A stretch of 64,000 nucleotides of DNA from Gammaproteobacteria bacterium (GCA_965230425.1 CBDDKW010000008.1:73667-137666), one strand, 5' to 3'. Shown: positions 47,283 to 55,311, counted from the stretch's first letter. Translations and numbers: made by a program. Notes: generated from the letters alone by a model not told the origin.

Positions 47283-47948
47283 CTACTCTATAATATCAAC
47301 TGACTTACGATTCAATACATGCTTCAAATAGTAAGCTTGATGCTTTGACAACTTTGCCACAGATAGGTAATTATCAATAAATTTTTCTATCCCATAATTT
47401 TTAAACGCAGCGATATCGGTATCATAGAATATCATATGCCGTAAATTACGAATACGATGCCAAATATTCAAAGGCTTATGACGAACTTTCAGATCTGCAA
47501 TATCAATTAAATAAAATTGTGCTTCATCATTTCGCAAAACATTACCTAAATGAATACCACGAAAAAAAATCCCTTGATAGTGTAACTGGGCGATATAAGT
47601 AGCAAGTTCAGTCAGAATTACTGGATTTGACGCGGAGACTAAATGGCGTACTTCCTCACCTGGTACTTTGGGATAGATCACCAAGTGTATATTCTCTTCA
47701 GGACATGAAAACGTTTGTTCAACATGAACAGCCGGAATATGTAATTGTGCCAAACGGCGAGAATTACGACTAAAACGTTGTGCGTGAGGGCGTAGTTTAC
47801 TAGAAGAGAATTTCTTCTTGCGCGGGTAGAATATTTTCACAATCTTATTATCGGCCGTTTGCAAAATTTTGGGGCCGTACTTGCAATCTGCTAAAACGAC
47901 CGCTGACTCGCAAAGAGCCTTGTATTCAAGCGCTGACATCTTTTGCAT
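47283..47948 (-). CDS. Lipopolysaccharide-kinase (Kdo/WaaP/InaA)-like protein-kinase-fold protein (tentative)
   Basis: 221 aa. GIFFRGIHLGNVLRNDEAQFYLIDIADLK resembles the catalytic-loop/DFG region of Kdo/RIO-type kinases with substitutions. Confidence 0.4.
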   Translation of the reverse strand: MQKMSALEYKALCESAVVLADCKYGPKILQTADNKIVKIFYPRKKKFSSSKLRPHAQRFSRNSRRLAQLHIPAVHVEQTFSCPEENIHLVIYPKVPGEEVRHLVSASNPVILTELATYIAQLHYQGIFFRGIHLGNVLRNDEAQFYLIDIADLKVRHKPLNIWHRIRNLRHMIFYDTDIAAFKNYGIEKFIDNYLSVAKLSKHQAYYLKHVLNRKSVDIIE

Positions 47949-48125: not shown

Positions 48126-49133
48126 ATGCAATCAACATACACAGGTCAATTCCCGCAAACCCGACTCCGGCGGTTACGCCAAAATCCACAAGTTCGTCGC
48201 CTTATTAGTCAAGCGCACTTGTGCAAGGAAGATTTTATCCTGCCACTCTTTATCCGCCATGGTCAACAGCAGAAACAGCCAGTCGCAAGTATGCCAGGCC
48301 ATTATCAATGGAGTGTGGATACCTTAGCGGCGGAAATAGAAACAATTGCTAAACTAGGCATACCCGGAATATTACTATTCGGTATTCCAGAACATAAAGA
48401 TCCTGCTGGTACAGATAGCTATTGTGAACAGGGCATTATTCAGCAAGCTATTCGTCTGGTAAAAGACGTTGCACCTGAATTACTGGTGATTACCGATGTG
48501 TGTTTTTGTGAATACACCGACCATGGTCATTGTGGCATTATGAATGACAGAACTGGCCAAATAGATTTAGACAATGATGCCACACTTGAGCTATTAGCAA
48601 AGCAAGCATTGAGTCATGTTCAAGCAGGTGCTGATATAGTAGCGCCCAGTGGTATGATTGATGGCATGATCGGGACTATTCGCACTGCTTTAGATGCAGA
48701 GAATTATCAGCATATCCCTATCATTAGTTACGCTGTAAAATACTGCTCAGCTATGTATGGACCTTTCCGTGAAGCGACAGAGGGAGCACCGCAATATGGT
48801 GATCGCAAAAGCTATCAAATGGATCCCGCTAATGCGGCAGAAGCCTTACGCGAAGCCGCGCTTGATATAGCTGAGGGTGCTGATATGCTCATGGTCAAAC
48901 CCGCAGTCAACTACCTTGATATTATTCGTGATGTAAAACAAGCACATCCTGGTGTACCACTATCGGCTTATCAAGTGAGCGGTGAATATGCCATGATCAA
49001 AGCTGCCGCAGCTCAAGGTTGGATCGATGAGCGCAAAGTTGCCTTAGAACAATTACTCTCAATTAAACGCGCCGGTGCAGATTTTATTTTTAGTTATTTT
49101 GCTAAAGATGCTGTGAATTGGTTGGCAGATTGA
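48126..49133 (+). CDS. hemB: Porphobilinogen synthase (delta-aminolevulinic acid dehydratase)
   Basis: RLRRLR N-terminal motif, a metal-binding Cys cluster (DVCFCEYTDHGHCG), the active-site Lys region (MVKPA) and SGEYAM. Confidence 0.93.
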   Translation: MQSTYTGQFPQTRLRRLRQNPQVRRLISQAHLCKEDFILPLFIRHGQQQKQPVASMPGHYQWSVDTLAAEIETIAKLGIPGILLFGIPEHKDPAGTDSYCEQGIIQQAIRLVKDVAPELLVITDVCFCEYTDHGHCGIMNDRTGQIDLDNDATLELLAKQALSHVQAGADIVAPSGMIDGMIGTIRTALDAENYQHIPIISYAVKYCSAMYGPFREATEGAPQYGDRKSYQMDPANAAEALREAALDIAEGADMLMVKPAVNYLDIIRDVKQAHPGVPLSAYQVSGEYAMIKAAAAQGWIDERKVALEQLLSIKRAGADFIFSYFAKDAVNWLAD

Positions 49134-49591
49134 GATTTAATATCTAAACGTATTTAAACCTCCCATTTCTATAACTCTAAAGATTATGACTAAAAGTGTT
49201 ACCTATATCTGAATAGAGTGCAGTTCTGTGGGTATTTTCCAGTATCGCATACAAAATTTTTTAATGTATTGTACTAAGCCTATTACCACGTGAAGTGAAC
49301 AGCCTAGCATTTCCTTAGTCGATGCATGTTCTTTCAGTGCTATTTTTCATGCAACTCTGCATTCTAGCTAATTACAAAAATAATTGATCATGAATAGTTG
49401 CGTTTAAAATATTTCTGAACTATTATACCGATCGTTCGAAAGAAAAAATAATAACAATCACTCAGTTCAGTACGGCATTACAGATGGATAATTAGATACA
49501 TAAAAGTTCAAGAGAATTTTTTATTAACCACTCCTGTACCTAATATTTATGTACAGAAGTATCTCTGACAAGAGAATAAGGAGATCAATTT

Positions 49592-52165
49592 ATGCCATTA
49601 ATTAACGACGTTAGAAAAGTAGTCACGCGTTTATCTTCGGATCCTGCATGGAAACGTGTTTTTGCAAAGACGAAATTAAATATCACTACGCAAATGACGG
49701 ATGCAGAAGTTGCGGCACAATTAACAACATCACTTAGTACTGGTGAACTCACCGCGCTTAGACAATTGTCTGGTTTTAAAGATATGGCTGCAGAAGCCAA
49801 ACAATTAATAACGCCTGGAAAACCAGCTCGCAGTATTTTATACCATGCTTTAGCATCACCCAACATGACTAACGATGGTCAAAATAATGAAATGACGCAA
49901 TGGCCAACACAGGATGAATTAGTCAGTGTGGAAAATTATGTCTATGCGAGTGCAAAGCGTTCATTAGATGATGTTAAACGATCAGCAACAAAGTTAACAG
50001 GTGATAATACACCAGAATTAGGCGTTGTTGTGTTTGCAACGGAATATAGGCCAGCACATAAAACGCCACACCGAAAACATGCAGATATTTGTTTTTCTCG
50101 TACAGGTGTTGCAAGAGTGGGAACTATTGATACAGGTTATGATGGAAAGTTAAGAGGCTATTGGCCTGTGGATGAGAGTCAGCCCCATGATTTTGGGATA
50201 GTACCCGTTAAGTATGATGCTTATGTTGCTGTTAAAGTGCGTAAAAGTCTTGCAAATAATAAGGGTTTTGAATTTGGTCCTCCACCTAATATTGCTGCAA
50301 TTGCTGATGGTTCAAAACAACCAGATAGCAGTTTTGAATTTTGGGTACCACTACATAAATTATTTAATGGTAGTGAATGTTTACGTGGTGAGAACTTACA
50401 GTGTGAGCTAAATGCACAGCATGTTAATGAAAAAATTAAACGTTTTCATCTGATGATGAAGAAAATCGGAGTTAACGCAGGGCATAATAATGATGATCTA
50501 ACCAAAGCTCCATTTACGATTACAGAGGACTTAGCCACAGTGAAATATAGTACTGATAAGGCTAGTGCTTGGATTACACCAAAGCCACAGCCATTTGTTA
50601 AAGTTGCTGAGGATGAAGACGGTAACAAAGTTAGTTTTATTGTGCCTCAAGAAAGGAATACTAATGCATCTCCGAACGAACCATCTGTAAGAATTTTTGG
50701 CCGAGACAGCCAAGACCGGCGTATATTATCTTCAACACTCGAAATGCGTACTAATAATGTCAAAATGAACCCTGTAACGAATATGCCAATATTAGACGAT
50801 GATGGTGATTTGATACCAGTTGGCGATCGTCCAGGCCCAGAATATATTCATATACGTGAGGATGATGTGCTAGGTGATTTAAACCAAGTTGATTCAGTGG
50901 ATTTGGCAAATTCGAGACAACTACTGAAAGAAGGTCGTCGAGCAATGCATTTTGCCGATACGACTGCAGATGGATGGGTTTCATTGAAACTTAGTGGCAG
51001 CAATGCTTTAGCCAATTTAGTTCACGTTAATGCATATTCATTAATAGGTGCTCCTGATTTTTATCCACTGGTAGATCAACGTGATATTCTCGAATGGAGA
51101 CAGGCCAATAGCAATAACCCTAATATTTTATTTTTCCGTGAACCGGATGCTTTATCTGAAGATAGACTCCCACCTAATTTAACGCTACCAGGGGCTTTTG
51201 ATAATGATGCAGAGGTGGAGAATCCTGTTGTTACTGCGATTATTACTCAAGCTGAAGAGAGTCGTACTGGACCTATACGTAGGCATATTGATAGTGAATT
51301 TAAAATTTCTCAAAATACATTGCCTGATGCAGCCGCTGGTTTATATGCTCCAGGTTGGGTTGTTAGCTTTGATGTCAATGAGCAAAAGCAAGGGCACCTA
51401 GCTGCCTATGGTTTAGGTAGCCCATTTCCAGAAGATGCTAAGCTCTGTGCCGCACTCAATGGTTTTTGGCCAGCAGTAGCACCTGATACTACACGGACTT
51501 TTGCACGAGAAGAGCTATTTATTAATAATCAACTCGCTTCGAGTACAACTGTACCAATGACAGATGATGAAATTAGTAGTGATTTGTCATGGGATGGTCT
51601 ACAGGGACCTAATATTATTCCAGGTGGCACAGTTCCTCAAATTGAGCATCCAAGTTTTCTGTATGCTGACTACACCAAAGATACAGAAAAAGGTAAATTT
51701 TCTATGGTGAAGACCAGTAAAATGACGAGTGCTGAATACAAGCGTCGTATCTTGACTATGGGTGCGGTAAGAAATTATCTAGCTAAACATGTTAGGGATC
51801 TACAACTACCATCTGGCGGCCCTAACTTTGTAGTTGGCATTTCAATTGTGAATTTCTCCTTAGAGCCCAGCACTCATGCTAGTGTTCAGGATGCGCAAGA
51901 CAGAATTAGTGGATTAAACTTTAGTAATGAAGTCTACCGATTTGTCTTTGTGCGCTACAATGAGCCTATCCCTCAGAACAGGGGTGCTGGCTTCGATCGT
52001 CCTCATCATAGACTTAGAGCCAGATTTAGTCAGCAAGTAGAGTTGCTAATTGATGGTAAGAATCGTGATTTGATCTGTGTGAAAAGCATTAATCATGGGG
52101 AAGGCGCAAATCTTGATTGGACTAGGGATCCTGCATCTGCAGCATCACCTGTACCAGCACTCTGA
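49592..52165 (+). CDS. Hypothetical 857-aa protein, first gene of an AT-flanked 3-gene island (no recognisable domain)
   Basis: Long ORF preceded by AAGGAG and separated by 18 bp from the following FAD-oxidoreductase gene. No P-loop, His-cluster or signal peptide that I can identify. Confidence 0.6.
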   Translation: MPLINDVRKVVTRLSSDPAWKRVFAKTKLNITTQMTDAEVAAQLTTSLSTGELTALRQLSGFKDMAAEAKQLITPGKPARSILYHALASPNMTNDGQNNEMTQWPTQDELVSVENYVYASAKRSLDDVKRSATKLTGDNTPELGVVVFATEYRPAHKTPHRKHADICFSRTGVARVGTIDTGYDGKLRGYWPVDESQPHDFGIVPVKYDAYVAVKVRKSLANNKGFEFGPPPNIAAIADGSKQPDSSFEFWVPLHKLFNGSECLRGENLQCELNAQHVNEKIKRFHLMMKKIGVNAGHNNDDLTKAPFTITEDLATVKYSTDKASAWITPKPQPFVKVAEDEDGNKVSFIVPQERNTNASPNEPSVRIFGRDSQDRRILSSTLEMRTNNVKMNPVTNMPILDDDGDLIPVGDRPGPEYIHIREDDVLGDLNQVDSVDLANSRQLLKEGRRAMHFADTTADGWVSLKLSGSNALANLVHVNAYSLIGAPDFYPLVDQRDILEWRQANSNNPNILFFREPDALSEDRLPPNLTLPGAFDNDAEVENPVVTAIITQAEESRTGPIRRHIDSEFKISQNTLPDAAAGLYAPGWVVSFDVNEQKQGHLAAYGLGSPFPEDAKLCAALNGFWPAVAPDTTRTFAREELFINNQLASSTTVPMTDDEISSDLSWDGLQGPNIIPGGTVPQIEHPSFLYADYTKDTEKGKFSMVKTSKMTSAEYKRRILTMGAVRNYLAKHVRDLQLPSGGPNFVVGISIVNFSLEPSTHASVQDAQDRISGLNFSNEVYRFVFVRYNEPIPQNRGAGFDRPHHRLRARFSQQVELLIDGKNRDLICVKSINHGEGANLDWTRDPASAASPVPAL

Positions 52166-52183
52166 TAATCGCTGTTAGAGCAT

Positions 52184-53212
52184 GTGATAATGCAAGTAGA
52201 TTATGATGTTGTCATAATAGGGGCAGGTCCAGCAGGTACAGCGGCGGCTATTACTGCCGCTATTGCTGGACTTAGTGTCTGTATCGTCGAGCGTGAGCAA
52301 TTCCCACGCTATCGTCCTGGCGAAACACTGCATCCAGGCATTGAGCCGTTATTAAAGCAGCTTGGTGCTTGGGATGAAGTGTTAGCTGCTAATTTTGTGC
52401 GACATCCAGGTATCCAAATGCAATGGGGTACGAATGAGCCTAGTTATCAGACATACAATGACGAAGCGGATTGGCATGGTTTTCAAGCTATTCGCTCACG
52501 TTTTGATGCTATTTTATTGCAAAGGGCAAGATCACTCGGTGTTTGTATCTATATGCCTGAACGAGCAGTAGCAGTGGCGGAGCATAAAGATCATACTCTT
52601 CTCACAACGGATCAGCAGCAAATATCAACACAGTATTTAATTGATGCCAGCGGTAGTTGGCATTGGCTTGCACGCCAGCGCGATATTGCCTTTACGGATT
52701 TATCATCTCCTTTATTTTGTCGATATGGTTATATCAATGAAATAGCAGATGATGATTTTGCCCACGTGCCGATGATCTGTAGTGATGAAGCAGGTTGGTT
52801 ATGGTTAGCCAATGTTGGCGATAAAACTTTACAATGGACAAAGTTGTTCTGGGAGCCGCAGAATGCGCAATCAGCAAAAGCAATACCCGAGCAATTAAAT
52901 ACACTGGGAAAGCAGGGTAAAACCTATGGCGCAGATGTCACTTGGCGTTATGCCGCAAAGTCTACTTGGAATAAATATTTTCTTGTAGGTGATGCTGCAG
53001 GTATTTTAGATCCGGCATCATCCCATGGCGTATTGCGTGCAATTATGTCGGGGATCTACGCCAGCGATTTAATCAGTAAACAGCAACGACTGCAGTTTGA
53101 TGATCAAATATTTACTCAAGAATATGATGCATGGCTGAAAAATTGGTTTCACCATGATGTGGAAAAACTCGATGAACTATATAAGGAGGTTAATATTCAC
53201 TGGTCTACTTAG
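52184..53212 (+). CDS. FAD-dependent oxidoreductase (GR2-type / halogenase- or geranylgeranyl-reductase-like flavoprotein)
   Basis: N-terminal Rossmann dinucleotide-binding motif DVVIIGAGPAGTAAA, a second FAD-contact motif GDAAGILDPASSHGV and a halogenase-like W-x-W segment (GSWHWLA). Confidence 0.75.
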   Translation: MIMQVDYDVVIIGAGPAGTAAAITAAIAGLSVCIVEREQFPRYRPGETLHPGIEPLLKQLGAWDEVLAANFVRHPGIQMQWGTNEPSYQTYNDEADWHGFQAIRSRFDAILLQRARSLGVCIYMPERAVAVAEHKDHTLLTTDQQQISTQYLIDASGSWHWLARQRDIAFTDLSSPLFCRYGYINEIADDDFAHVPMICSDEAGWLWLANVGDKTLQWTKLFWEPQNAQSAKAIPEQLNTLGKQGKTYGADVTWRYAAKSTWNKYFLVGDAAGILDPASSHGVLRAIMSGIYASDLISKQQRLQFDDQIFTQEYDAWLKNWFHHDVEKLDELYKEVNIHWST

Positions 53213-53264
53213 TCTATATAGTAAGAACAAATAGGATTTTTTTAAACTTTTAAGGAGTGCTGTT

Positions 53265-54809
53265 ATGGCTTTAGATATAAATGATGCAAACAAAAATGGT
53301 ATTGATCCCTTAGATCCTGCCTTAGCTGGGATCCAAGGTAATATTATTCGTGGTCATGATCGTGAACATGCGAATTTTATTTTTCTTAATTTTAAAGGTA
53401 GTACTGCTGCTGAAAAAACCAAAGCTAAAGGCGTGATTAAAGCCTTTGCCATGCGCCATATAACTACTGCATTGAATCAACATAAAACTCAGCAGGCAAG
53501 AGCGGAAGCAATAAAGGAAGGCAGAGAGTTCACAGAACTACCTTTTGCTCATGTGGCTTTTTCTAAGAGTGGCTATGATTTTCTTGGTTTAACCTCACCA
53601 TCTGCAAATCAGTTAAGCGCCTTTAACAAGGGTATGGGTGGTACAGATGGTGATTGGAAATCATTGAATGATACAGGCGAATCTGCTCAGGATAAGTGGG
53701 ATAAAGGTTTACAGGAAGAGTCCCATGCGATGATTATTCTAGCGCACAATGATGAAACAATGTTAACCCTTGAAATGGCTAAAATAAAAGCTTTATTTTC
53801 AGAGGTAATTGATAATGACGCACTCCACGTTGAACATGGCTTTGTCTTGAGAAATGATAAAAAAGATGAACATGGCAAAGGCCAAGTGATAGAGCATTTT
53901 GGTAATCCAGATGGGATCAGTCAACCGTTATTCACCAAGCCAGAGATTGCTGCACAAACTCGTCAGAAATGGGATCCCAGTGCGCCTTTAAATCTAGCTT
54001 TAAGGCCGGATCCACACGCAAAAGATGGTGATGAGTCAGGCTTTGGTAGTTATTTTGTTTTCCGTAAACTGGAACAAAATGTTAAAAAATATCATGCCGA
54101 ATTAACAAAATTAAAAGATGAAGCAGGTAAAGATGCTGAAGGAGAAGTTAATATAAGTGAAAGCTTAGGTAACGCTTATGCCATTGGACGCCATGAAAAA
54201 GATGGTGTTCCGGTAGTCACTCATGAAACGCCAGATCCAAGTGCAGCAATGAGTAATGATTTTAATTATAATGATGATCCAGACGGTAATAAATGTCCTC
54301 TACACGCTCACATCCGTAAAACCAATCCGCGCGGTAGTGGTGGCCGTGGTGAGAGCTTAGACCAGGAGCGTGAACACCGTATTGTTCGACGAGGTATTAG
54401 TTATGGTGTTGATATCTCTGAAGTACCGCATCCAGAAAAAGGTTCTGGTTTGTTATTCATGTGTTATCAACGTGATTTAGATAATCAATTTCGTTTTATG
54501 CAGCGCATGTGGGCTAATGCAGATAATTTTCCATTTAAACAAGATGCTAATGGTCAGACTATACCAGTAGGTGTTGATCCTACCATTGGTCAAAATAGTG
54601 GCACGACTAAACAGCAATGGCCTAGGAAATGGGGTAATGCAGCAGCAGGTAAAGCTAAGTTTGACCTTAGAGAAGTGGTGACTACGAAAGGTGGTGGTTA
54701 CTTCTTCTCACCTTGCATGTCTATGCTGAATAATCTTGCTGATGACGCAGATATGCCAGCAGAGCAGCCTGCAACACCTGCCATACCGGTTCCAGGAGCC
54801 GGGACCTAG
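53265..54809 (+). CDS. DyP-type (dye-decolorizing) heme peroxidase, long (C/D-class-like) form
   Basis: N-terminal GIQGNIIRGH (DyP QGNIL box), a GxxDG-region equivalent (HFGNPDGISQPLF) and proximal-His motif HAHIRKTNPRG. 514 aa is typical of class C/D DyPs. Confidence 0.8.
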   Translation: MALDINDANKNGIDPLDPALAGIQGNIIRGHDREHANFIFLNFKGSTAAEKTKAKGVIKAFAMRHITTALNQHKTQQARAEAIKEGREFTELPFAHVAFSKSGYDFLGLTSPSANQLSAFNKGMGGTDGDWKSLNDTGESAQDKWDKGLQEESHAMIILAHNDETMLTLEMAKIKALFSEVIDNDALHVEHGFVLRNDKKDEHGKGQVIEHFGNPDGISQPLFTKPEIAAQTRQKWDPSAPLNLALRPDPHAKDGDESGFGSYFVFRKLEQNVKKYHAELTKLKDEAGKDAEGEVNISESLGNAYAIGRHEKDGVPVVTHETPDPSAAMSNDFNYNDDPDGNKCPLHAHIRKTNPRGSGGRGESLDQEREHRIVRRGISYGVDISEVPHPEKGSGLLFMCYQRDLDNQFRFMQRMWANADNFPFKQDANGQTIPVGVDPTIGQNSGTTKQQWPRKWGNAAAGKAKFDLREVVTTKGGGYFFSPCMSMLNNLADDADMPAEQPATPAIPVPGAGT

Positions 54810-54845
54810 TGGTTCTTAAAAAACGCTAGGTTACCTATCTTCCAC

Positions 54846-54882
54846 AAAACCCCATGGCAGCCAGTTATGGGGTTTTGTTTTT
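54846..54882 (+). terminator. Rho-independent terminator after the DyP gene
   Basis: aaaaccccat / ggcagccagtt / atggggtttt stem-loop followed by gttttt. Confidence 0.8.
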
Positions 54883-55092
54883 AATATTTACATTTCATTA
54901 AGTCTAGCAAAAAATTCTTTTTTAATTGAAATTAATATTCTTTATATTATAATTTGATTCTATACTATACTGTAAAGTCGTGATTGGTCAGTATATTAAT
55001 ATATTTTATATTATTTTAAATAATAACAAGTTTTGACTTGTGCTCGTGTGGATGCTATGCTATTTTTATATTACAAGTTAAAGCTTGTGCTT

Positions 55093-55300
55093 ATGAGGAG
55101 TACAAGCCTAGTGGATGGTAAATCAGTGATTAAGCAGCTACAAAAAAGCTGATTGGATACATGTTAGTACACACGGTAGCCACCATAAGCTTAAAAAACT
55201 GGGGCATCCGTCAATTATTGTGCCAGTGCATGGGAAAAAAGATTTAAGAATAGGCACATTACACAATATAGAAAAAGTAACTGGTATAAAACTAAAATGA
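55093..55300 (+). pseudogene. hicA: hicA mRNA-interferase toxin, frameshifted in an A6 run (55142-55147)
   Basis: Frame 1 gives MRSTSLVDGKSVIKQLQKS*. With one A removed it continues ADWIHVSTHGSHHKLKKLGHPSIIVPVHGKKDLRIGTLHNIEKVTGIKLK*, which has the HicA signature (GSHH...HPxxxVTVPHPKKDLxIGTL). Confidence 0.85.
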
Positions 55301-55311
55301 GGTGATAAAAA

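Follow-up and report, generated by a model that had tools for sequence, protein, structure and literature searches.

What can three tightly spaced genes be doing together when the first encodes a large protein of no assigned family, the second a flavoprotein and the third a haem peroxidase? The question is raised by positions 49134–54882 of a 64,000-nucleotide stretch of DNA from a Gammaproteobacteria bacterium (GCA_965230425.1, CBDDKW010000008.1:73667–137666). The whole of this stretch is called the window here, coordinates are counted from its first letter, and the three genes are called A, B and C in order. Gene A (49592–52165, + strand, ATG start) encodes 857 residues and is a candidate quinoprotein oxidase as well as the candidate substrate of B. 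Gene B (52184–53212, + strand, GTG start, with a second possible start at an in-frame ATG 6 nt 3′ of the GTG) encodes 342 residues of a putative flavin adenine dinucleotide (FAD)-dependent monooxygenase of the LodB/GoxB/QhpG type, the proposed maturase of A. Gene C (53265–54809, + strand) encodes a 514-residue DyP-type haem peroxidase of class C/D (class V). The open reading frame (ORF) calls agree exactly with the first-pass annotation, which had described three co-directional genes separated by 18 nt (A–B) and 52 nt (B–C); a Shine–Dalgarno sequence, AAGGAG, lies 5′ of A and of C. The explanation towards which we lean is that A and B constitute a very divergent system of the lodAB/goxAB type, in which A would be a quinoprotein oxidase matured by B, and that C uses the H2O2 produced by A.

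Protein A had been described as having no recognizable domain. This holds for sequence searches of Pfam, NCBIfam and the PDB, but not at the level of the predicted fold, which is LodA/GoxA-like. No family in Pfam or NCBIfam was matched by A at E ≤ 0.01. When 32 members of its family were scanned against Pfam at E ≤ 10, no LodA match was obtained, and the same scan gave only two non-significant QH-AmDH_gamma matches (E = 0.15), which were not used as evidence. PDB sequences were not matched by A (phmmer) or by a 32-sequence profile of the family, and a 41-residue segment containing the D-x3-C-x6-W motif discussed below had only chance matches in the PDB. No match to a common housekeeping family was found. 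The family is nevertheless large: it has 459 matches in a collection clustered at 90% identity, 1087 representatives at 50% identity (E ≤ 1e-3; 573 at E ≤ 1e-30) and relatives in 407 species genomes in a scan of a 185,579-species collection, where the best match to A has 38% identity. Within the family the window protein is divergent and carries insertions; it shares 36–40% identity with its nearest relatives. All named members are annotated as 'hypothetical protein', and neither a description of the family nor one of a link between tryptophylquinone and DyP was found in the databases and the searchable literature.

Some members are fused at the N-terminus to other domains. Among P0353, P0373, P0446 and P0334 these are an S8 subtilase (two), a ferritin-like domain, PF12902 (one), and a peptidoglycan-binding domain (one); no peroxidase occurs among the fusions. 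S8 peptidase genes also flank A loci in Bacillus (L006, 4639–5928; L090, 8390–9877 and 10883–11860). These associations hint that in some lineages the protein is processed by proteolysis or resides outside the cell or in its wall.

The likeness of A to LodA and GoxA was assessed from one full-length AlphaFold2 model together with weak but collinear motif matches. A Foldseek search of the whole PDB with the model returned LodA chains as the six best matches, which were marginal (E of 2e-3 to 2e-2, low TM-score), and structural alignments of A with LodA/GoxA gave approximately 10–16% identity. The predicted model has the overall fold of LodA/GoxA. For comparison of sequences, a LodA-family reference profile was seeded with a gene from a Bradyrhizobium plasmid (L089), anchored to the sequence of the PlGoxA crystal structure and extended with collected relatives, all of which carry PF17990 and/or PF18417. 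With default settings, hhalign found no significant similarity between family A and the LodA family (probability 1.2%). The four best local alignments are, however, collinear (query positions 175, 413, 521 and 662 against template positions 19, 195, 360 and 549). While each match is weak alone (P of 0.02–0.3), the chain score of 97.3 was reached by only 3/200 column- or block-shuffled controls and a four-member chain by 0/200; a reversed control gave a single match with a score of 16. The aligned blocks (family A/LodA family) are TGVARVGT/xGxARxGN, GDGW...APDFFP/NNDGWHDD...PPNFGP, LPDAAAGvF/LxxWAxGDF and YxxRVLaM/YxxRIxxM. The best of the four local matches is the GVARVGT block (50105–50125, + strand, codons 172–178 of A), which corresponds to the N-terminal GIARVGN block of the LodA family; the motif is present in 100 of 120 family-A sequences, with R175 and G177 invariant. 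A motif census found five blocks in identical order in both families, namely G.AR.G[NT], DGW, [AP]P[DN]F, A.G.F and LG[GS]PF, the last of them in 119/120 family-A and 29/32 LodA-family sequences. We take A to be genuinely homologous to LodA/GoxA, but so remotely that current family models do not reach it. Given this homology, A is most likely an enzyme and, at the same time, the protein on which B acts.

The gene that seeded the reference profile (L089, 3844–4908, Bradyrhizobium septentrionale plasmid pBs162S2c) is a genuine member of the LodA/GoxA family, encodes 354 residues and has IS1380 transposases on its flanks. Probably it is what remains of a truncated gene; the lodB-like gene beside it is intact.

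LodB, GoxB and QhpG are flavoenzymes that build cysteine tryptophylquinone (CTQ), and all three resemble B. The NCBIfam models were matched by B with E = 2.5e-31 for LodB (full length, 1–347 of 361; 109 bits against a cut-off of 400), 3.4e-31 for QhpG (1–286 of 423; 109 bits against 240) and 2.7e-27 for GoxB (96 bits against 400). In Pfam, B matches FAD_binding_3 and Trp_halogenase (6.7e-19), and residues 13–18 (GAGPAG) form the GxGxxG of an FAD-binding fold. From these scores B is assigned to a distinct subfamily that is orthologous to neither LodB, GoxB nor QhpG. It is a group-A-like FAD monooxygenase, the most likely role of which would be to build the cofactor of A.

The first-pass annotation had asked whether the flavoprotein is a halogenase or a geranylgeranyl reductase; the comparison resolves to neither, and the assignment as an FAD flavoprotein itself stands. 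Geranylgeranyl reductase was rejected because the match to TIGR02032 (1.7e-28, 100.2 bits) falls under the cut-off of 158.8. Were B a halogenase, it would halogenate a residue of A or a metabolite, as the label given to its homologues by the PGAP pipeline implies. In its favour are the Trp_halogenase match, the best matches of B in the PDB, which are all halogenases (CmlS, 8zop, ChlB4 and PltA), and the retention of a W-x-W pair. The match to the CmlS halogenase model (1.4e-33) covers the FAD domain only (4–339 of 570) and is under the cut-off, and B, with 342 residues against 570, lacks the C-terminal domain of CmlS. In halogenases, a lysine (CmlS K71, PrnA K79) forms a chloramine. The R73-H74 codons of B (52400–52405, + strand) place a histidine at this position: His74 aligns with the second K of 'VKKPS' in CmlS (K71) and with the K of 'QRKYG' in 8zop. 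Among 66 relatives of B the position is held by His in 63, Pro in two and Tyr in one, and never by Lys, while Arg73 is invariant (66/66). The WxWxIP site reads WLWLAN in B and W-x-W-x-A-[KR] across the 66 relatives, so that 'IP' has given way to an invariant Ala and a variable residue. On these two replacements the halogenase identity was rejected. The proven hydroxylase QhpG has similar halogenase matches and the same W-x-W pair, and both QhpG and the GoxB model are structurally closest to CmlS (PMC7876137), which accounts for the halogenase-like matches of B. We regard halogenation by B as very improbable.

RefSeq/PGAP calls B-like plasmid genes 'tryptophan 7-halogenase' (L090, 6992–8029; plasmid matches H1, H2, H4, H17 and H28). 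H1, H2 and H4 were confirmed as members of the B family (41–45% identity), and H17 and H28 share approximately 26% identity. Because the family lacks the halogenase catalytic lysine, the label is probably a systematic mis-annotation. Such labels, like that of a generic FAD oxidoreductase, mislead genome mining for halogenated natural products.

The neighbourhoods of family A were surveyed at 80 species-level loci and seven others using our own ORF calls, phmmer and tblastn. B lies directly downstream of A in 74 of 76 informative loci, being absent from L059 and L070 only; additional loci of the Bacillus cereus group (L006/L007) also lack it. The spacing is typically a stop-codon overlap (about −50 to −3 nt), and most other loci have up to approximately 350 nt. 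The pairs are distributed over Cyanobacteria, Actinobacteria, Firmicutes, Acidobacteria, Alpha- and Gammaproteobacteria, Bacteroidota, Myxococcota and Nitrososphaerales archaea. When all flanking ORFs were clustered without bias, no further neighbour proved to be widely shared. A and B form a near-obligate pair. The first-pass annotation had offered the large protein as the substrate, scaffold or partner of an oxidative modification or detoxification pathway: the part of a partner in a functional oxidative unit is retained, whereas those of a passive scaffold or of a component of a small-molecule pathway are held to be less likely.

Three metagenome-assembled genomes (MAGs) of Nitrososphaerales, of the ammonia-oxidizing-archaeon type, carry family A with B directly downstream (L048, L058 and L085). 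The LodA-like family has been reported to be absent from Archaea (PMC4417212). The archaeal loci could be the result of horizontal transfer or of mis-binning.

If A has a cofactor made from its own side chains, two invariant sites are candidates for it. The first, D615-x3-C619-x6-W626 (51434–51469, + strand, codons 615–626), directly follows LGSPF and is invariant in 120 sequences; C263 and C619 are the only invariant cysteines of the family. The second, W667-D668-G669 (51590–51598, + strand, codons 667–669), is likewise invariant and provides an alternative candidate Trp. We consider D615-x3-C619-x6-W626 to be a candidate site of a protein-derived Cys-Trp cofactor. Its D-x3-C pattern is shared with GoxA (D678-x3-C682) and QhpC (D33, C37 and W43); by the register of the alignment, C682 and W697 are taken to be the CTQ pair of PlGoxA (D678-x3-C682-x14-W697). 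The numbering of PlGoxA Asp678 and the QhpC residues D33 and W43 were confirmed (PMC7876137), and the CTQ pair of LodA is C516 and W581 (PMC4417212). The LGSPF block of A corresponds to the GGxFHPG block of LodA/GoxA. In a forced profile alignment, which is of low confidence, C619 stands opposite GoxA T589, adjoining the invariant W590 of the GGxFHPGxELTW block, and W667 stands opposite W670 in the TKW670MGIPW675 block.

Several observations weigh against A being a quinoprotein oxidase of this kind with C as its peroxidase. Residues 411–857 of A modelled alone gave a poor model with no LodA match. The low-confidence forced alignment puts no Cys opposite GoxA C682 and no Trp opposite W697, and the canonical CTQ positions are, as far as the alignments can tell, not demonstrably conserved in A; if A carries a tryptophylquinone, the cross-link is therefore probably arranged differently. 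A few loci lack B, and most A–B loci lack a peroxidase. The lack of a demonstrable canonical Cys/Trp alignment and the loci without B would suit a small-molecule pathway, close to what the first-pass annotation had in mind. In it A would be a new kind of enzyme, biosynthetic or catabolic, that has no cofactor derived from its own protein, B a tailoring monooxygenase working on the same small molecule as A, and C the catalyst of a further oxidative step, for a pigment, a natural product or detoxification. The usual substrates of group-A flavin monooxygenases are small aromatics, and cytochrome P450 and 2-oxoglutarate-dependent oxygenase genes lie a few kilobases from the A–B pair of Scytonema, with opposite-strand genes in between. 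Yet the matches of B to LodB, GoxB and QhpG, which modify proteins, are as good as those to any small-molecule enzyme, and the modelled fold of A points specifically to CTQ oxidases. The start/stop overlap of A and B is kept from archaea to bacteria while all other neighbours vary, which argues for a two-protein unit. We judge a small-molecule pathway to be unlikely, although it is the foremost of the alternatives.

The assignment of C as a DyP-type peroxidase was borne out by the Pfam domains DyP_N and Dyp_perox_C and by a TIGR01413 score of 114.8 bits, above the cut-off of 100.5. Its closest relatives in the PDB are two large enzymes of class C/D, AnaPX (5c2i, 1e-80) and DyP2 (4g2c, 2e-65). 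G213-N-P-D216-G217, H349 and R375/R376 of C are invariant in 11 DyPs that adjoin A-family genes; the roles of the GXXDG Asp, the proximal His and the distal Arg in DyPs are established knowledge (PMC8248431). C is a DyP of class C/D with its catalytic residues intact. Its N-terminus, MALDINDANKNG, has no RR (twin-arginine; Tat) motif, and its C-terminal tail is rich in Pro and Ala; the tail was compared with the consensus of encapsulin targeting peptides. The EfeB model was matched with 48 bits (cut-off 428), and no EfeU, EfeO or encapsulin gene was found among the ORFs scanned between 43961 and 61062. An EfeB-like class A enzyme or an encapsulin cargo was rejected on the lack of a Tat signal, the low EfeB score and the lack of such neighbours, in agreement with the earlier statement that the usual DyP contexts do not apply.

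A haem peroxidase is part of the cluster at 12 of the 80 loci, or at 10 of the 50 with adequate flanks (approximately 15–20%). At eight loci it is a DyP (Acaryochloridaceae, Altericista, three Pyrinomonadaceae, Bacillus, Paenibacillus and, as a partial gene, Sporosarcina), and at four it is an animal-type An_peroxidase (PF03098), which is unrelated to DyP (Modestobacter and three alphaproteobacteria). Several gene orders occur: the An_peroxidase gene lies immediately upstream in Modestobacter, as it does in L003, while the three alphaproteobacteria have the order A–B–An_peroxidase, mirroring the A–B–DyP of the window. On a Bacillus thuringiensis plasmid the DyP comes first, followed by A ('hypothetical protein') and B ('tryptophan 7-halogenase'). 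The three genes thus co-occur elsewhere, as the first-pass annotation had proposed to check: A, B and DyP are together at at least seven of the 80 species loci and on the B. thuringiensis plasmid. A scan of metagenomes from the DyP side gave one distant locus only. DyP is an accessory present at a minority of loci, outside the conserved core.

That C is functionally unrelated to A and B and merely shares their transcript would fit the many A–B loci that have no peroxidase. It would also fit the relationships of the window DyP, which is closest to the AnaPX type; among the surveyed A–B loci, DyPs as similar occur only at L034, L065 and L070. Against such an accident, 12 of 80 independent species loci from at least five phyla have a peroxidase, of two families and in several orders, where approximately 0.1% would be expected (a rough estimate that assumes about one such gene per genome), and in the window the genes lie 52 nt apart on the same strand with a single terminator. 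Mere adjacency is hardly credible on these figures. Since two peroxidase superfamilies are swapped at A–B loci across several orders and phyla, the selected property would be peroxidase chemistry itself, and its simplest source is H2O2, or an oxidizable product, from A.

A peroxidase might alternatively act as a maturation factor, carrying out, in the manner of MauG or DtpA, an H2O2-driven long-range oxidation or cross-linking of precursor residues of A together with B. The di-haem enzyme MauG is a precedent for haem-dependent formation of a tryptophylquinone (PMC11951088; PMC7876137), DtpA is required for the maturation of GlxA under copper limitation (PMC4736821), and DyPs form surface Tyr/Trp radicals that are able to oxidize protein (PMC10646903). 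However, a peroxidase found at only about 15–20% of A–B loci cannot be a general requirement, and the interchange of two unrelated folds is better fitted by generic H2O2-dependent chemistry. We hold this role for C to be rather improbable, somewhat more so than a small-molecule pathway.

In the reading that we prefer, an oxidase matured by B and served by C, several elements are inferred: the presence of a quinone in A, the residues that form it, the release of H2O2, the nature of the substrate and what C does. B would hydroxylate a Trp of A that serves as the precursor, the reaction carried out by LodB, GoxB and QhpG; homology and the near-obligate pairing suggest this step. A tryptophan-derived quinone would then form in A, probably cross-linked to C619, to judge from the candidate residues. 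Mature A would, by analogy with the oxidase chemistry of LodA/GoxA (PMC4699246), use O2 to oxidize an amine or amino acid to an aldehyde or keto acid, with the release of NH3 and H2O2. Finally, as the neighbourhood statistics suggest, a cytoplasmic C would consume the H2O2 while oxidizing a co-substrate, and so either protect the producer or drive a second oxidation, A and C acting as an oxidase–peroxidase couple.

A bolder proposal, which we put forward tentatively and consider possible rather than probable, is that family A represents a second, hitherto unrecognized branch of the tryptophylquinone-oxidase superfamily in which the cross-linking Cys has moved to another segment of the active site, at C619, and pairs with W626 or W667. 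The branch would be spread from Thaumarchaeota to Bacillus and be coupled in some lineages to a haem peroxidase. If so, the architecture of its protein-derived quinone cofactor, or even the chemical type, would be new. Some 1000 sequence clusters in about 400 species genomes, archaea included, would join the few enzymes whose catalytic quinone derives from a Trp of their own, which at present are methylamine dehydrogenase (MADH), quinohemoprotein amine dehydrogenase (QHNDH) and LodA/GoxA; the cross-link in A may be placed differently from theirs. To our knowledge, little has so far been learnt of what bacterial DyPs do in nature and of where their H2O2 comes from. Coupling to family A would give class C/D DyPs a physiological source of H2O2, and the conserved link to a putative H2O2-generating oxidase makes the role of these DyPs experimentally testable. 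Oxidases of the LodA type act as antimicrobial and biofilm-dispersal factors and have found use in biosensors; in a family as divergent as A, further substrate specificities are likely.

DUF8225 (PF26676) genes recur beside A–B or A–DyP clusters in Actinobacteria and Firmicutes (L003, 11337–12335, − strand; L006, 2170–3354, − strand; L014, approximately 6463–7653, + strand; also L064, L067 and L072). Their product may be a further accessory component. In the window no DUF8225 homologue is adjacent.

The operon of the window is preceded by an AT-rich leader of 458 bp (49134–49591, + strand), which spans the interval from hemB to A and holds the AAGGAG ribosome-binding site of A at 49578–49583. 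Its GC content of 0.31, against 0.387 for the window, is among the lowest 2.8% of 458-bp windows. No Rfam family, riboswitch or other regulatory RNA was found in the leader, and a promoter scan of its + strand gave no strong σ70 consensus. An intrinsic terminator at 54844–54878 (+ strand; a 15-bp stem with six GC pairs, a 5-nt loop and a T-run) ends the operon. Both the AT-rich leader and the terminator had been noted in the first-pass annotation, and the measurements agree with it. The term 'operon' is justified, but an 'island', the term that it also used, is not demonstrated, because the GC content of A, B and C (0.41–0.44) is ordinary and near that of the window, the flanks hold housekeeping genes and AT-rich intergenic DNA is normal in a genome of 39% GC. 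The flanking housekeeping genes encode 3-hydroxyisobutyryl-CoA hydrolase, HemB, a PrpD-like protein, RsmE, S-adenosylhomocysteine hydrolase and S-adenosylmethionine synthetase. According to PADLOC, the operon is not part of any defence system.

The genes named as neighbours, hemB and hicAB, were found, but the second of them only in part intact. hemB (porphobilinogen synthase; 48126–49133, + strand; Pfam ALAD, 2.5e-144) lies directly upstream of the leader. A haem-biosynthesis gene therefore directly precedes an operon that encodes a haem peroxidase, with no terminator predicted in between; read-through may lead to co-expression, or the adjacency may be coincidental. On the other side hicB (55312–55776, + strand) is intact, whereas hicA (55081–55311, + strand) is split across two frames, with 'GKSVIKQLQKS' and a stop codon in one and 'ADWIHVSTHGSHHKLKKLGHPSIIVPVHGKKDLRIGTLHNIEKVTGIKLK' and a stop codon in the next. 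Either the toxin gene has been inactivated by a frameshift, while the antitoxin gene hicB next to it is intact, or the sequence contains an error. Between an enoyl-CoA hydratase-family gene and hemB lies an ORF of 221 codons (47283–47948, − strand) with weak kinase-like matches only (Bud32, 1.4e-4; Kdo kinase; LanKC); its product may be a small atypical kinase. The three window proteins that were looked up in a 15-billion-protein collection (A, C and HemB) are each singletons there, and the nearest named relatives of HemB, 63–67% identical, come from Planctomycetota MAGs and one Gammaproteobacteria MAG. The host lineage is poorly sampled.

The pairing of an oxidase with a dedicated flavoprotein maturase is already known from LodA-like systems and is not categorically new. 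What sets family A apart is that it lies outside all current LodA-like models, has no demonstrable canonical CTQ alignment, occurs in archaea and is recurrently linked to a peroxidase. The closest parallels are LodA/LodB (the L-lysine ε-oxidase of Marinomonas mediterranea and its maturase) and GoxA/GoxB (glycine oxidase), which combine an oxidase with an adjacent flavoprotein maturase; the gene order lodA–lodB is the same as in the A–B pattern (PMC4417212). The LodA-like family is defined by PF17990 (LodA_N) and PF18417 (LodA_C), whereas A matches neither of these nor the NCBIfam LodA/GoxA models. In LodA/GoxA the CTQ Cys follows PWQxDxxSC; in A an invariant Cys, C619, lies instead seven residues past LGSPF and might pair with W626 or W667. 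Members of family A are present in Nitrososphaerales, and they are frequent in two groups, Bacillus and Cyanobacteria, that are reported to have few LodA-like genes or none (PMC4417212). Fusion to a catalase-like haem domain is described for 22 of 168 LodA-like proteins (PMC4417212).

In quinohemoprotein amine dehydrogenase, the peptidyl-tryptophan dihydroxylase QhpG acts on QhpC, the CTQ-bearing γ subunit. QhpG requires Arg70 and the W-x-W pair Trp181/Trp183 for activity, to which Arg73 and the W-x-W pair of B may correspond. Unlike this system, the window operon has no radical-SAM QhpD, no protease QhpE, no gene for a small γ subunit and no haem c domain. The target of QhpG is a cross-linked peptide of approximately 80 residues, whereas that of B would be a residue in a large protein.

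For C, the nearest functional precedent is from Streptomyces lividans, where GlxA, an oxidase with a cross-linked cofactor, supplies the H2O2 on which the DyP DtpA works as a peroxidase (PMC4736821). As is proposed for A and C, an H2O2-producing oxidase with a protein-derived cross-linked cofactor is functionally coupled to a DyP. GlxA is a copper radical oxidase with a Cys-Tyr cofactor and has no relationship to A; DtpA belongs to class A and is exported by the Tat pathway, whereas C is of class C/D and has no signal peptide, and the genes for GlxA and DtpA are not in an operon of the A–B–C type. In architecture C agrees with AnaPX (Anabaena Alr1585, 5c2i) and DyP2 (Amycolatopsis sp. 75iv2, 4g2c), sharing their two domains, the GXXDG Asp, the proximal His and the distal Arg; AnaPX and DyP2 have been characterized as isolated dye or Mn peroxidases.

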